This document shows, in pieces, positions 9,276 through 58,211 of a stretch of DNA of 64,000 nucleotides. The stretch covers positions 224,001-288,000 of the forward strand of contig CBDBZU010000004.1 in the NCBI GenBank assembly GCA_965213625.1, in the 5' to 3' direction. Numbering within the stretch: position 1 is the first letter of the stretch; each line of letters begins with the position of its first letter. The notes beneath the pieces were generated by a model. That model ran no database searches, was not told the origin of the DNA, and saw only the letters and a list, made by a program, of their open reading frames with translations. Position numbers and translations under genes: made by a program. The DNA is from a bacterium. Lineage in GTDB: Bacteria > UBA8248.

Positions 9276-9595
9276 TCGTGATCGTCAATCGTCCGCTGGA
9301 TATCTCCGGATATCTCAAGAACCACATTTCGCGTCGCGGTAAGTGGGTGCGGTGGTTTATGAATCGACGTGCGCGGCACGGACATAACCATAAGCAAACT
9401 GTTCGCGGGCCGGAAGTTGGAGGACGGCCCGAAAGGGACTCGCCGGGATGCGGGCGAATTGTAACGAATCCACTTTCGGTTTGATTGCAGAGCAGAAGGT
9501 GCCGATTTCAAAAAGACTCAAATATATTTATATGCTCAATAATATCAATCGGCTACGGGAATCTTGAATTTAATACCCGTGTCAGCCCGTATGAA

Positions 9596-9690
<95 letters not shown>

Positions 9691-9789
9691 GCGGGAGCGG
9701 GGCCGTCGCGTGAAAGCGTGAACCGGCCACGCGGTGGTTTGTATATCACGGACGGCGCGGGCCTGTCAGTCCGCCGCCGAGATCGCGCC

Positions 9790-9818
9790 TTGACTTTTCC
9801 GCTCACTTTTTCGATGAT
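9790..9818 (+). promoter_or_regulatory. Sigma70-like promoter for the small RNA/mini-ORF unit
   Basis: TTGACT (9790-9795), 17 nt spacer, GATGAT (9813-9818). Confidence 0.6.
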
Positions 9819-9850
9819 CCCAAGTACGTCAGAAAGGAGGTGATCCTAAT

Positions 9851-9889
9851 ATGAAAATAGACTGTAGGGACGAGGTGGCTGGAGCCTAG
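9851..9889 (+). CDS. Mini-ORF MKIDCRDEVAGA (12 aa)
   Basis: ATG AAA ATA GAC TGT AGG GAC GAG GTG GCT GGA GCC TAG directly after the extended SD. Confidence 0.5.
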   Translation: MKIDCRDEVAGA

Positions 9890-9964
9890 GGGAGAGAGCC
9901 CTGAGGAGATTCACCGGGTTCATCTTCGCCCAGGCGAATCCCCACCAGGCCACCGAACGATGTG

Positions 9965-9996
9965 AAACCCCGGTCCGCGAGGGCCGGGGTTTTTCA
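9965..9996 (+). terminator. Intrinsic terminator
   Basis: AAACCCCGGTCC-GCGA-GGGCCGGGGTTTTTCA: GC stem, GNRA loop, U tract. Confidence 0.85.
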
Positions 9997-10063
9997 CGTC
10001 ATCTATTAACGAGAAGTCTTCGTCTTTCACATCATCTGTATTCAAGGATAAGGAGCGCGTTTC

Positions 10064-10522
10064 ATGTCGCAGACGAGTTGGACGGTCTATCTCTCTGGAG
10101 AAGTGCACACGGACTGGCGCGAGCGCATCACCGAGGGCGCGGAGAAAGCGGGGCTGCCGGTCACCTTTCTCGCCCCCGTCACGGACCACGACGCGAGCGA
10201 CGATTGCGGCGTGTCGATTCTCGGCGGTGAGGAAAAACCGTTCTGGAAAGACCGCAAGGGCGCGGGCGTGAACGCCATCAGGACGCGCACGCTCATCGAG
10301 AAGGCGGACGTCGTGGTCGTGCGCTTCGGTGAAAAATACAGGCAGTGGAACGCCGCTTTCGACGCGGGCTACGCGGCAGCTCTGGGAAAAGCCCTCATCA
10401 CCCTGCACGATCCGGGCCACACCCACGCGCTCAAGGAAGTCGACGCCTCCGCCATGGCCGTGGCCGAAGAGCCCGAGCAGGTGGTGCGGATTCTGAACTA
10501 CGCCATCAACGGAGCATTGTAG
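10064..10522 (+). CDS. YtoQ-family protein (nucleoside 2-deoxyribosyltransferase-like fold)
   Basis: VYLSGEVHTDWRE, HDASDDCG, VVRFGEKYRQWNAAFDAGYA, HALKEVD; AAGGAG SD. Confidence 0.85.
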   Translation: MSQTSWTVYLSGEVHTDWRERITEGAEKAGLPVTFLAPVTDHDASDDCGVSILGGEEKPFWKDRKGAGVNAIRTRTLIEKADVVVVRFGEKYRQWNAAFDAGYAAALGKALITLHDPGHTHALKEVDASAMAVAEEPEQVVRILNYAINGAL

Positions 10523-10528
10523 CGGGCA

Positions 10529-11530
10529 TCACCTCCCCCGCACCCCGTAGGCTTCGGGATTCACGAGCGTGGAGGGTCGCTCGCCCCGGAAGTACGCGAG
10601 AACGCATTCGGTCGTGTGGTGGAGGGTGTTGCGAATCGCATCCTCGCCACGGCCGCCCAGGTGGGGGGCGAGCACGGCATTCTCGAGCCCGAAGACGGGA
10701 TGATCGTAATCGGGCGGCTCCTCGGGGAACACGTCTATCCCCGCGCCCCGGATGACGCCCTCTTGCAGAGCTTCCGTAACGGCGTCCAGATCGAAGACGG
10801 GACCCCGCGAAGTGTTGAATACGTAGGCGTCGGGCTTCATGAGGCTTAAAATCTCGCGGTTGATGATGTGCGTCGTCTCGGGCGTCAGCGGCACGTGGCA
10901 TGTCAGGTAGTCCGATTCCCTCGCCAGCTCTTCCAGGCTCACGAAGCGCACGCCCAACTTTTTCGCCGTCTCCTCATCTTGCACGATGTCGTGGGCGATC
11001 ACGTTCATGTCGAAGGCGACGGCCCGTTTCGCCACCTGCTTGCCGATGTTCCCGAAGCCCAGTATCCCCATCGTCATACCGTTCAGGGGGCGCATGGGCG
11101 GCTGAATCTCCCGCCAGAGGCCCTTGCGGATGTTCACGTCCAGCCAGCCGATGCGCCGGACGGCGCAAAGCAGCAGGCCGAAGAGGTGCTCCGCCACGGA
11201 CTGCGAGTTCTGCCCCGCCGAGTTCGCGACGAGTATGCCCCGCTCGGTGGCCGCCGGAATGTCGACGTTGTTCAGGCCCACGCCCGCGCGCACGATAATT
11301 TTCACCCCGCGCGCGTTGTCCATCACATTGCTCGTATAAGGCTCCGCCCCTGCGATGACGGCCGTTACGTCCGGCAGGGCCGCGATGACGTCTTCCTCGG
11401 GCATGTAGCCCCGGCACTCGTCCAGGCGTACCTCCAGCCCCTCCTCCACCAGGGGCTGAAAAATCTCCATCGGATCGTCGAAATTCAGGATAAATGGGGT
11501 TCCCACCCAGACCACGGGTCTATCGCTCAT
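10529..11530 (-). CDS. D-isomer-specific 2-hydroxyacid dehydrogenase (phosphoglycerate dehydrogenase-like)
   Basis: GILGFGNIG, HVPLTPET, NTSRG, DVFPEEP, PHLGG. Confidence 0.9.
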   Translation of the reverse strand: MSDRPVVWVGTPFILNFDDPMEIFQPLVEEGLEVRLDECRGYMPEEDVIAALPDVTAVIAGAEPYTSNVMDNARGVKIIVRAGVGLNNVDIPAATERGILVANSAGQNSQSVAEHLFGLLLCAVRRIGWLDVNIRKGLWREIQPPMRPLNGMTMGILGFGNIGKQVAKRAVAFDMNVIAHDIVQDEETAKKLGVRFVSLEELARESDYLTCHVPLTPETTHIINREILSLMKPDAYVFNTSRGPVFDLDAVTEALQEGVIRGAGIDVFPEEPPDYDHPVFGLENAVLAPHLGGRGEDAIRNTLHHTTECVLAYFRGERPSTLVNPEAYGVRGR

Positions 11531-56498: not shown

Positions 56499-58211
56499 CT
56501 AGAAAAGAAAATACCGCTGCGCCATGGGAAGCACTTCTGCGGGCTCGCACGTGAGCGTCACCCCGTCCGCCTTCACCACGTAGGTTTCGGGGTCCACCTC
56601 GATATCGGGCAAGGCGTCGTTGAGCTTCATGTCCTTCTTGCCGATGGAGCGGCAGTTCGAGACGGGCGCCACAATCTTGCCCAGACCCAGCGCGTCGCCC
56701 AATCGATCCTCGGCCGCCGCCTGTGAGACGAAGGCATAGGAAGTCGGTCCGACCGCTTTCCCCATCGAGCCGAACATAGGCCGGCCCAGGACGGGCTGCG
56801 GGGTGGGGATGGAAGCGTTGGGATCGCCCATCGCCGCGTGGGCGATGAAGCCGCCCTTCACCACGACTTCTGGCTTCACGCCGAAAAAGGCTGGCTTCCA
56901 GAGCACCATGTCCGCCATCTTCCCCACTTCGATAGAGCCCACGTAATCGGAAATCCCGTGCGCGATCGCGGGGTTGATGGTGTATTTCGCCACATAGCGC
57001 CTGGCGCGGTAGTTGTCGTTGGCAGCGCTTTCCTCAGGTAGCGCGCCGCGCTGGCGCTTCATCTTGTCCGCCGTCTGCCAGGTGCGGATGACCACCTCGC
57101 CCACGCGGCCCATGGCCTGGGAATCAGAACCCATCATGCTAAACGCGCCCATGTCGTGGAGAATGTCTTCCGCCGCGATGGTCTCCGCCCGGATTCTCGA
57201 CTCGGCGAAGGCAACGTCCTCTGGAATCTTGCTGTCCAGGTGGTGGCACACCATGAGCATGTCGAGATGCTCGTCCACCGTGTTCACCGTGAAGGGACGC
57301 GTGGGGTTCGTCGAGGAGGGCAGCACGCCCGCCTCCCCGCACACGCGAATGATGTCGGGCGCATGGCCGCCGCCCGCCCCTTCGGTGTGGTAGGTGTGGA
57401 TGGTCCGGCCCTTGAACGCGGCGATGGAGGTCTCGACGAAGCCCGATTCATTCAGCGTATCGGTATGGATGCAGACCTGCACGTCCATATCCTCCGCCAC
57501 GCCGAGGCAGCAATCAATCGCCGCGGGCGTGGTTCCCCAATCCTCATGGAGTTTCAGCCCCACCGCGCCCGCGCGGATCTGCTCCATGAGAGGCGCCGGC
57601 CGCGAGGCGTTTCCCTTGCCCAGGAATCCTAAGTTCATGGGGTATGCCTCCGCCGCCTGGAGCATTCTCGCGATGTTCCACGCGCCAGGCGTGCAGGTGG
57701 TGGCGTTCGTGCCCGTGGCGGGGCCGGTTCCGCCGCCGAACATCGTGGTGACGCCCGAGGAGAGCGCCTCGTCTATCTGCTGGGGACAGATGAAGTGGAT
57801 GTGGGTATCGATGCCGCCCGCGGTGAGTATCATCCCCTCGCCCGCCAGCACTTCCGTGGCGGCGCCGACCGTCATGTCCACCCCCTGCATCAGGTGCGGA
57901 TTTCCCGACTTGCCGACCCCGACTATCTTCCCGTCCTTGATTCCCACGTCCGCCTTCACCACGCCCCAGTAGTCGAGGATCAGCGCGTTCGTGATGAGCA
58001 GGTCGAGCGCTTCAGCCTCGCGCGTCTCGGTGGGGGATTGCCCCATGCCGTCTCTGATGACCTTGCCGCCGCCGAATTTCGACTCATCGCCGTAGACGGT
58101 GCGGTCTTCTTCGACCTCGATGAAAAGCTCGGTGTCGGCGAGGCGCACCTTGTCCCCCACCGTGGGGCCGAACATGTCGGCGTAGGCGCGCCTGTCCATG
58201 CGAAAAGCCAT
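56499..58211 (-). CDS. ureC: Urease alpha subunit
   Basis: [40 protein letters not shown]. Confidence 0.99.

Follow-up and report, generated by a model that had tools for sequence, protein, structure and literature searches.

A divergent relative of the actinobacterial Ms_IGR-5 RNA as a candidate ribosome-docking small mRNA in a second phylum-level group

Introduction

Two described kinds of RNA come closest to the element analyzed here, namely the rre ("ribosome-regulated expression") small messenger RNAs (mRNAs) of alpha-proteobacteria (Hahn et al., RNA Biol 2017, PMC5711450) and the actinobacterial small RNA (sRNA) Ms_IGR-5 (Rfam RF02471). In Bradyrhizobium, the rreB transcript is 165 nucleotides (nt) long, carries a 17-nt Shine–Dalgarno (SD) sequence and 14 codons, and is encoded beside a tRNA-Gly gene; it is reported to co-sediment with 30S subunits, to be weakly translated, and to gain stability when its start codon is turned into a stop codon (PMC5711450). 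Because growth was unchanged upon overproduction of rreB and because ribosomes far outnumber this RNA, its authors argue in their Discussion against a simple titration of ribosomes; synthetic RreB and RreR peptides were unstructured, and no activity was found for them (PMC5711450). Ms_IGR-5 was first found in Mycobacterium smegmatis and is treated as a non-coding sRNA in the accessible parts of the literature searched; "significant ribosomal reads" are reported for its homologues in Mycobacterium abscessus and M. smegmatis (PMC4974804), and its RNA has been detected in the transcriptomes of Streptomyces lividans, Streptomyces avermitilis, and M. smegmatis, the M. smegmatis IGR-5 being listed as ncMSMEG15794c (PMC10454040). 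Here, we analyze an element found at positions 9790–9996 of a 64,000-nt stretch of bacterial DNA, hereafter the window (contig CBDBZU010000004.1 of assembly GCA_965213625.1, positions 224,001 to 288,000 of the forward strand; lineage UBA8248), and compare it with both kinds of RNA.

On the basis of sequence comparison, we estimate at about 60% the probability that this element is transcribed on its own into an RNA of about 170 nt resembling a small mRNA, which is a divergent member of the Ms_IGR-5 lineage, a functional counterpart of the rre genes, and works through the docking of ribosomes. Its parts, all on the + strand, are a promoter, a 16-nt tract complementary to the 3' tail of 16S rRNA (an extended SD), a 12-codon open reading frame (ORF), the helices P0, P1, and P2, an unpaired conserved bulge, and an intrinsic terminator.

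Results

A divergent member of the RF02471 lineage

The first-pass annotation of the window, made from its letters alone, had not recognized the element as a transfer-messenger RNA, 6S RNA, signal recognition particle (SRP) RNA, RNase P RNA, or riboswitch, and in agreement with this, the element falls short of every Rfam family's gathering score, the 11 sub-threshold matches in 9690–10100 all lying below their cut-offs. The absence of known relatives that this seemed to imply does not hold, since the element belongs to the RF02471 lineage and the rre kind has been described since 2017. Although RF02471 scores only 16.1 bits on the window element (cut-off 45), this is the sole RF02471 match in the genome, and two relatives of the same family score above the cut-off (G031 at 55.1 bits and G034 at 47.5 bits), with 30–43 bits in other genera of the family. 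A DNA search started from the window alone reaches the second of these relatives (L038/G034, E = 4.8e-15), which is itself the RF02471 match of 47.5 bits. Over the 61 relatives and 14 named control genomes, including Caulobacter, on which RF02471 was run, none of the 14 controls matches. Since same-family relatives exceed the cut-off and the own genome has no other match, the window element is a divergent branch of RF02471 that the Rfam model misses, and, as judged from the intermediate sequences, a member of that lineage.

The likeness extends to the order of the parts. The Ms_IGR-5 consensus shares with the element GAGGUGGCUG, a stop codon nine bases later, GGCGAAU-CC, CAG-UCACC, and the extended SD; in both, a short 5' leader precedes a 15–16-nt anti-16S tract and a 12–13-codon frame containing GAGGUG, P1 spans from the end of the frame to CAGNYCACC, P2 rises from the stop codon, and the RAAUYC bulge and a terminal hairpin follow. 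The window element differs in that it lies in another phylum-level group, starts with ATG, has a terminator with a U run, and forms a perfect A-U pair where actinobacteria mostly have a G-U wobble.

A search pattern drawn from the window and the Rfam consensus (AGGAGGTG, GAGGTG-N9-TAG, and GGCGAAT, with gaps) matches at least 118 stretches in the species-genome collection, against some 2.5 expected by chance over the whole collection (a rough hand estimate). Among the 80 matches listed, 77 are actinobacterial and 3 are close to the window's family; the former include Mycobacterium, Rhodococcus, Nocardioides, Kineococcus, Dactylosporangium, Kitasatospora, Pseudonocardia, and Frankiales. All nine actinobacterial loci tested are RF02471 matches (67.9–185 bits), and R1, a covariance model built from 26 sequences of the window's family, matches 52 of the 77 actinobacterial loci, pre-selected by the pattern, over their full length (E <= 0.01). 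Among 151 genomes sampled evenly from the actinobacterial phylum, RF02471 has matches at E <= 0.001 in 44 and scores above its cut-off in 20 (40/147 and 19/147 when four unpublished genomes are left out).

Loci chosen by the Rfam model alone tell a similar story. Contiguous pairing of 15–16 nt with the 16S tail, G-U allowed, is found in 25 of these 27 loci; an ATG, GTG, or TTG frame of 12–13 codons in 15 of them (stops TAG in 8, TGA in 5, and TAA in 2); the other 12 have CTG, ATA, or GTG at the start position, and the frame is open through GAGGUG in all 27. The architecture of extended SD, 12–14-codon frame with GAGGUG, P1, P2 at the stop codon, bulge, and terminal hairpin is also seen in loci selected by Rfam alone, and a search for homologs of the same architecture, as the first-pass annotation had advised, returns relatives with extended SD, short frame, and P1 both in the window's own family and in actinobacteria. 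Five actinobacterial genomes have one full-length match each. One actinobacterial genome (G091) has two RF02471 matches (C126:9255-9458 and C17:3902-4104, at 43.9 and 41.1 bits), whereas the other matching genomes have a single full-length copy.

Closer to the window, 51 genomes of its phylum-level group were available for comparison. The R1 model finds one copy in the own genome (156 bits) and detects the element in 37 of 41 same-family genomes (the four misses being 67, 96, 87, and 91% complete), in 4 of 7 sister-family genomes, and in 0/1 in each of two other single-genome families; a DNA search finds it in 22/22 same-genus and 34/36 same-family genomes, the two misses being 96% and 91% complete. 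Promoter, SD, ORF, P1, and terminator align throughout the family. The element is, as first proposed, a stand-alone unit of promoter, extended SD, short ORF, structured domain, and terminator, and this unit is conserved. Three weak matches (L161, L162, and L200) fall in coding-looking DNA that lacks the element and were treated as false positives. A contig titled as a metagenome-assembled genome of Nitrospinaceae (L096, positions 1827–1930) holds an element nearly identical to that of G027, which belongs to the window's family, and encodes an identical peptide (MKTHCRDEVTAV); this contig may be mis-binned or its label wrong.

Conservation of the reading frame rather than of the peptide

The ATG at 9851, which lies 4 nt after the anti-16S tract and 10 nt after GGAGG, opens a 12-codon ORF (MKIDCRDEVAGA) that ends with a TAG stop at 9887–9889, just as first annotated. 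Of 95 aligned sequences from both phyla, 94 are usable for an analysis of the frame (L166 is cut by a contig end), and the frame is open in 94/94. Within the window's family, all 28 sequences have 12 codons followed by TAG and start with ATG, placed 9–11 nt after GGAGG; the five sister-family sequences all have 14 codons followed by TGA (MKKSSCSDREVAEV and variants); and the actinobacterial sequences have 12 codons in 59/61 cases and 13 in 2/61, the TAG being fixed in this last set by the search pattern. Frames of 12, 13, and 14 codons imply that length changes only by whole codons, and GAGGUG stands 21 nt from the start codon in the family as well as in 59/61 actinobacterial sequences. In-frame stops occur in 0/64 distinct variable parts, against 11/64 and 40/64 in the other two frames, counts that are indicative only, the parts coming from related rows.

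Within this frame, the residues show no conservation other than that imposed by RNA pairing. In actinobacteria, codon 5 reads NGG (W 21, R 22, G 5), codon 6 reads ACN with three observed third letters equally common, codon 7 reads NGU (R 27, C 17, S 3, H 1), and codons 2–4 vary widely; the patterns of codons 5–7 imply that what is fixed are nucleotides. The invariant letters GGAC and GUGAGGUG are those paired in P0 and P1, and those residues that are conserved, EV-A/T, fall on the P1 strand GAGGUGRC. The start codon itself is TTG in 42/61 actinobacterial sequences, and several others have CTG or ATA alone at that position. In ten such sequences (L238, L240-L242, L245-L248, L250, and L251), CTG (ATA in L251) is the sole codon at the conserved start and the frame is open to the stop, which suggests near-cognate initiation, or docking without efficient initiation.

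A frame kept open, whole-codon length changes, and residues that follow the RNA pairing argue that translation, and not the peptide, is selected; the simplest reading seems to be a selection on the act of translating a frame of fixed length and position. The foremost alternative is that of a micropeptide gene, in which the 12-residue peptide would be the effector and the strong SD would drive its very high expression. The frame open in every usable sequence, its whole-codon length changes, the lack of in-frame stops, and the invariant, well-spaced ATG of the window's family are all what such a gene would display; however, residues vary wherever pairing leaves freedom, those that are conserved coincide with a P1 strand, many relatives have weak starts, and the synthetic peptides of the analogous RreB and RreR were unstructured, with no activity found (PMC5711450), so that we hold this alternative to be unlikely. 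The first-pass annotation had joined to the micropeptide the idea of a structure remodelled by translation; this second part fits the anatomy, in which P1 takes up codons 8–11 and the P2 base the stop codon. It is the peptide part that residues and start codons weaken.

A tract complementary to the entire 16S tail

The tract AGAAAGGAGGTGATCC at 9831–9846 is the exact reverse complement of the 3' end of the genome's own 16S rRNA, as read from the single 16S gene of the assembly, which bears out the complementarity first noticed from the window alone. In the 4.15-Mb genome, AAAGGAGGTGATCC occurs twice, in the rrn operon and in this element, and the longest exact anti-16S matches are 26 nt (rrn) and 16 nt (this site), which makes the tract the longest outside rrn. 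The next matches, one 14-mer and three 13-mers, all extend into the helix-45 side, the longest other match wholly inside the 16-nt tail complement being 12 nt. The extended SD is kept in all full-length family members aligned, save for a few G-for-A changes with which a G-U pair with the tail is still possible, and the pattern AAAGGAGGTGATCCB has 25 matches in the 51 genomes of the phylum-level group, 25/25 of them inside this element.

The predicted duplex of the tract with the 16S tail has an energy of −29.9 kcal/mol, against −12.4 for the ribosome-binding site of the downstream gene ytoQ. The regions upstream of 83 long ORFs of the window, a crude comparison set that contains spurious ORFs, reach −16.5 kcal/mol at best, with a median of −7.5. 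The first 48 nt fold weakly (−5.3 kcal/mol, compared with −40.2 kcal/mol for the P1/P2 domain), so that the tract is predicted to be accessible.

Such a tract could also be thought to serve in bulk, the RNA acting as a 30S sponge, a hibernation factor, or a protector of the 16S tail that titrates or shields anti-SD tails. A 16-bp duplex of this predicted strength, covering the whole free tail, is suited to that role, and rreB does sit on 30S subunits (PMC5711450). Yet the gene is single-copy, the absence of a growth effect upon rreB overproduction and the large excess in which ribosomes were judged to be speak against titration in the analogous case (PMC5711450), and a pure sponge would not need a conserved frame, P1 and P2, or a bulge; we therefore regard a bulk role as quite unlikely.

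RNA structure and covariation

The segment 9824–9998 folds at −73.4 kcal/mol (z = −3.77), and 0/200 shuffles folded as well. RNAalifold, applied to the 26-sequence family alignment, returns P0, P1, one long P2, and the terminator, with 43 pairs of which 15 are compensatory. Its small 5' helix (UAC.GU with the SD) was rejected, being 79.1% paired, without compensatory change, and with 45–46 sequences unpaired at two of its pairs; the consensus of 38 pairs that remains has 96.4% of cells paired and keeps the 15 compensatory pairs, a score obtained on the same 26 sequences from which the structure was derived. When the whole model structure is laid on the 95 sequences of both phyla, 90.6% of cells are paired, compared with 35–46% when partners are slid.

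The helix P1 joins codons 8–11 (GGUGGCUGG, 9874–9882) to CCAGGCCACC (9945–9954; generally CCAGGYCACC). It is 98.1% paired in the family alignment and 97.6% paired in the 95-sequence alignment, with compensatory changes present, and its compensatory variants can be read directly in L046, L050, L079, and L116; the 3' strand of P1 was absent from the search pattern. In the consensus structure that Rfam gives for RF02471, codons 10–11 are paired not in P1 but with the 3' half of the SD; the SD side of this helix, which may be an alternative conformer, cannot covary. As for P2, it forms a single long hairpin at 9884–9935, whose base pairs 9884–9895 with 9923–9935 and contains the stop codon and whose apical part is variable; 95.8% of its cells are paired in the family alignment, with 7/10 pairs compensatory, and its base is 95.0% paired in the 95-sequence alignment, in which part of this base is fixed by the search pattern. 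The weak hairpin P0 (9844–9870; UCCU 9844–9847 with GGGA 9867–9870, plus inner pairs) has the AUG in its interior and joins the final 3 nt of the SD to codons 6–7; it is 97.1% paired with 2 compensatory pairs in the family, and 82–91% paired with compensatory changes over the 95 sequences.

The fold first proposed for the element thus stands in part: its P1 is upheld by covariation, whereas the three-way junction with separate P2 and P3 gives way to the single long P2, with 86.3% of cells paired in the family alignment against 96.4% for the consensus above and 0/10 compensatory pairs in P3. A generalized form of that P3, in which the bulge would pair with the interior of P2, reaches p <= 0.05 in 0/23 family, 0/5 sister-family, and 8/59 actinobacterial sequences, in a test whose regular expression skipped 8 of the 95 rows and mis-cut some interior lengths. 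The 9-nt bulge itself (GAAUCCCCA, 9936–9944, between P2 and P1) is unpaired and conserved in the general form RAAUYC, which also appears in the RF02471 consensus.

This bulge invites the idea of an sRNA that base-pairs in trans, with RAAUYC(C) or the 3' strand of P1 as its seed and translation of the ORF gating access to it. A conserved single-stranded motif adjoining helices, for which no intramolecular partner was found inside P2, would suit a seed, and RF02471 is catalogued as an sRNA; however, the bulge is short and about RAAUYC alone is constant across lineages, and we consider a trans-acting role very unlikely.

The strands of P1 also have likenesses of their own. The 5' strand GAGGUGRC (9874–9879 in the window) resembles the SD itself, and GGYCACC, within the 3' strand, resembles the 16S segment GGAUCACC, on which grounds P1 looks like an internal copy of the duplex between the SD extension and 16S rRNA. 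This internal GAGGUG precedes the stop codon by 9 nt; speculatively, a terminating ribosome could re-pair its anti-SD there, with a spacing like that of initiation, and be retained where P1 meets P2.

Promoter, transcript, and neighborhood

The promoter first described as TTGACT, a 17-nt spacer, and GATGAT is present at 9790–9818 and is of the sigma-70 type, with 9/12 positions matching. The surrounding 1.4 kb (9300–10700) holds 2 promoter-like sites, against 0.3 expected from shuffles, and TTGAC of the −35 box and the −10 position are kept in 30/30 aligned family sequences. At the other end, the strong terminator first reported at 9965–9996 is a G+C-rich hairpin of 13 pairs ahead of a U run. 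In the family alignment, it is 95.2% paired and 4 of its pairs are compensatory; a simple terminator scan of the region left it unflagged. Judging by the geometry of promoter and terminator, the predicted transcript (9826–9994, about 169 nt) would begin with the A of ACGUC and end in the U run, and the Rfam and R1 model matches begin at 9824–9826.

The RNA libraries of three studies yield contigs that match the element at 98–99% identity. One of 169 nt spans exactly 9826–9994; another of 311 nt (X2) ends at 9992, with 147 unlike letters before 9829; and a third of 170 nt (X1) covers 9795–9948, starting inside the promoter and ending in 16 unlike letters after 9948. Beyond the 3' half of the nearby tRNA and the element, the rest of 9500–10600 is uncovered in these libraries (X1-X3), which is not evidence of absence, and a further run (X14) placed no contig on the region. 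Such contigs cannot show the ends or strand of a transcript, and such libraries may contain DNA; in our view, they hint only weakly at a discrete RNA of high abundance.

Upstream, the divergent tRNA gene of the first description is tRNA-Ser(GGA), at 9598–9690 on the − strand. A divergent tRNA gene also lies just upstream of the element in several other genera of the family, with an SRP RNA there too in L040, and a tRNA gene adjoins the element on the same strand in a Kitasatospora locus (loci L035, L038, L040, and L064 in all). This adjacency, which recurs in the window, in relatives, and in rreB, may be a coincidence or a common genomic niche.

Downstream, the ORF at 10064–10522 encodes a YtoQ-family protein (PF11071, 220.8 bits) and starts 68 nt past the terminator. 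The gene follows the element in 20/22 same-genus relatives and was not found in the fetched flanks of the two others, nor in those of 13/13 other-genus family genomes; with a linkage confined to one genus, the regulation of ytoQ cannot be the conserved function. The promoter scan called no promoter-like site between terminator and ytoQ, for which reason some read-through may occur within this genus. That the element is a leader or attenuator of ytoQ, as this proximity, missing promoter, and same-genus linkage might indicate, is highly improbable given the other-genus and same-genus genomes in which ytoQ was not found, the unrelated actinobacterial neighbors, and a terminator both strong and conserved. 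The actinobacterial neighbors were called with a crude ORF caller that yields many spurious ORFs at high G+C; by eye, they resemble those of the mycobacterial synteny (putatively nitrobindin-like, rhodanese, DUF1416, and YgfZ), with no obvious functional link.

Discussion

Comparison with rre genes and other analogs

Judged by analogy, rreB and rreR are the closest functional analogs of the window element. As in rre, where the transcript measures about 165 nt, the predicted RNA stands alone, with a promoter and terminator of its own and a conserved structure; complementarity to the 16S 3' end spans 16 nt here and 16–17 nt in rre, and the ORF is very short (14 or 18 codons in rre); and the element lies beside a tRNA gene, as in Bradyrhizobium. 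It also displays what sets rre genes apart, at least 16 nt of 16S complementarity directly upstream of a very short ORF. Two differences stand out, in that the complementarity runs into a GTG start in rre, whereas the ATG of the window lies 4 nt after the duplex, and in that most of the rreB SD is predicted to be base-paired, whereas that of the window is predicted to be open. The rre paper names alpha-proteobacterial orders alone (PMC5711450). Sequence homology is not detectable: RF01867 (CC2171), which looks like a Caulobacter example of rre RNAs and whose consensus, like that of Ms_IGR-5, has an extended SD at its start, scores 18.7 bits on the window element (cut-off 75), aligned at the SD and terminator alone; RreB and RreR were compared by description.

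Other analogs share single traits with the element. In Bacillus, the STAB-SD of cry3A and the strong-SD protection of hbs mRNA are described as relying on a 5' SD-like tract that binds 30S (PMC4113751, PMC5737220). The tract of the window is likewise close to the 5' end; unlike a STAB-SD, which blocks RNase J1 and does not start translation, it is followed by an ORF at usable spacing, with the start 10 nt after GGAGG. Ribosome-dependent leader-peptide attenuators are alike in that translating a short ORF would open a helix located downstream of it and ahead of a terminator, and differ from the window element in that it lacks a conserved downstream gene beyond one genus, a regulatory codon run, and an identified anti-terminator.

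A proposed ribosome-docking mechanism

On this basis, the following course of events can be proposed. The tract, some 5 nt from the predicted 5' end, could by its sequence pair with the entire single-stranded 16S tail, so that a 30S subunit would dock on it with unusual tightness and place the AUG, in the loop of P0 and 10 nt past GGAGG, in its P site, a spacing at which initiation is possible by geometry. The comparison of relatives shows that the 12-codon frame is kept open, codons 8–11 being the 5' strand of P1 and the stop codon lying in the base of P2; a ribosome leaving the strong SD would have to break the duplex behind it, melt P1 and the P2 base ahead of it, and terminate inside the junction. 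Ribosome occupancy may then switch the RNA back and forth from a compact state, with P1 and P2 formed, to an open one, and this would set the lifetime of the RNA and/or expose the RAAUYC bulge and the 3' strand of P1. The output of the gene would be the interaction of RNA and ribosome itself, that is, a "ribosome-regulated RNA," a role that, by analogy, fits both rreB and the Ms_IGR-5 homologues.

Several points weigh against this interpretation. The ATG stands at a workable distance from the SD, unlike in rreB, and the RNA may simply be well translated. As the window element scores below the Rfam cut-off (16.1 vs 45), its family assignment is reached through a chain of intermediates; the actinobacterial loci behind most of the counts were selected with a pattern in which AGGAGGTG, GAGGTG-N9-TAG, and GGCGAAT are fixed, so that those features and the R1 matches on actinobacterial loci are partly circular, and the 95-sequence alignment was fitted to the model. 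The RNA-library contigs, for their part, do not prove transcription or transcript ends. Lastly, a role as a 5' stabilizer of the STAB-SD/RNase J1 type, though attractive, has no visible nuclease to act against; an RNase J-based mechanism was rejected, the nuclease not being found in the own genome or in 37/37 genomes of the phylum-level group searched. Indeed, in the own genome (96.6% complete), TIGR00649 and PF17770 have no match and a tblastn search with the RNase J of L256 (G054) returns none at E <= 1e-3; PF17770 matches 0/37 genomes of the group and 7/14 control genomes; and the own genome does encode RNase E/G (353.7 bits) along with RNase Y (669.8 bits).

Implications for a wider class

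The kind of RNA is not new, the rre small mRNAs having been described in 2017 and the RF02471 sRNAs forming a catalogued family. In an incomplete literature search, we found no account of Ms_IGR-5 as an rre-like small mRNA whose 12-codon, frame-conserved ORF gates a covarying helix, none of RF02471 relatives outside Actinomycetota, that is, in a second phylum-level group, none of evidence that the frame and not the peptide of Ms_IGR-5 is selected, and none of the mirroring between Ms_IGR-5 and the alpha-proteobacterial rre genes. An sRNA able to pair with the entire anti-SD tail appears conserved across at least two Gram-positive-type phyla, and Ms_IGR-5, its non-actinobacterial relatives, and the rre likeness combine three isolated observations into one testable class.

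More tentatively, the Ms_IGR-5-type RNAs of Actinomycetota and of this separate Gram-positive-type phylum, together with the rre RNAs, might form one widespread functional class of single-copy RNAs with full 16S-tail docking and a 12–18-codon translational gate on a structured domain, which would read out, or act upon, the 30S subunits competent for initiation as a pool; they could, for instance, inspect or mark the 3' ends of 16S rRNA or tie the fate of the RNA to ribosome availability. We regard this extension as possible and rather doubtful. M. smegmatis and Streptomyces offer tractable models in which to address what tight docking on the 16S tail is for, and the Rfam RF02471 model, which misses the window's branch, could be rebuilt to include it.

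Elsewhere in the window, Rfam RF02514 ("5_ureB_sRNA") matches positions 57770–58047 on the + strand with 86.9 bits (cut-off 40); this match probably reflects the conserved coding region of the urease beta-subunit and not an sRNA.

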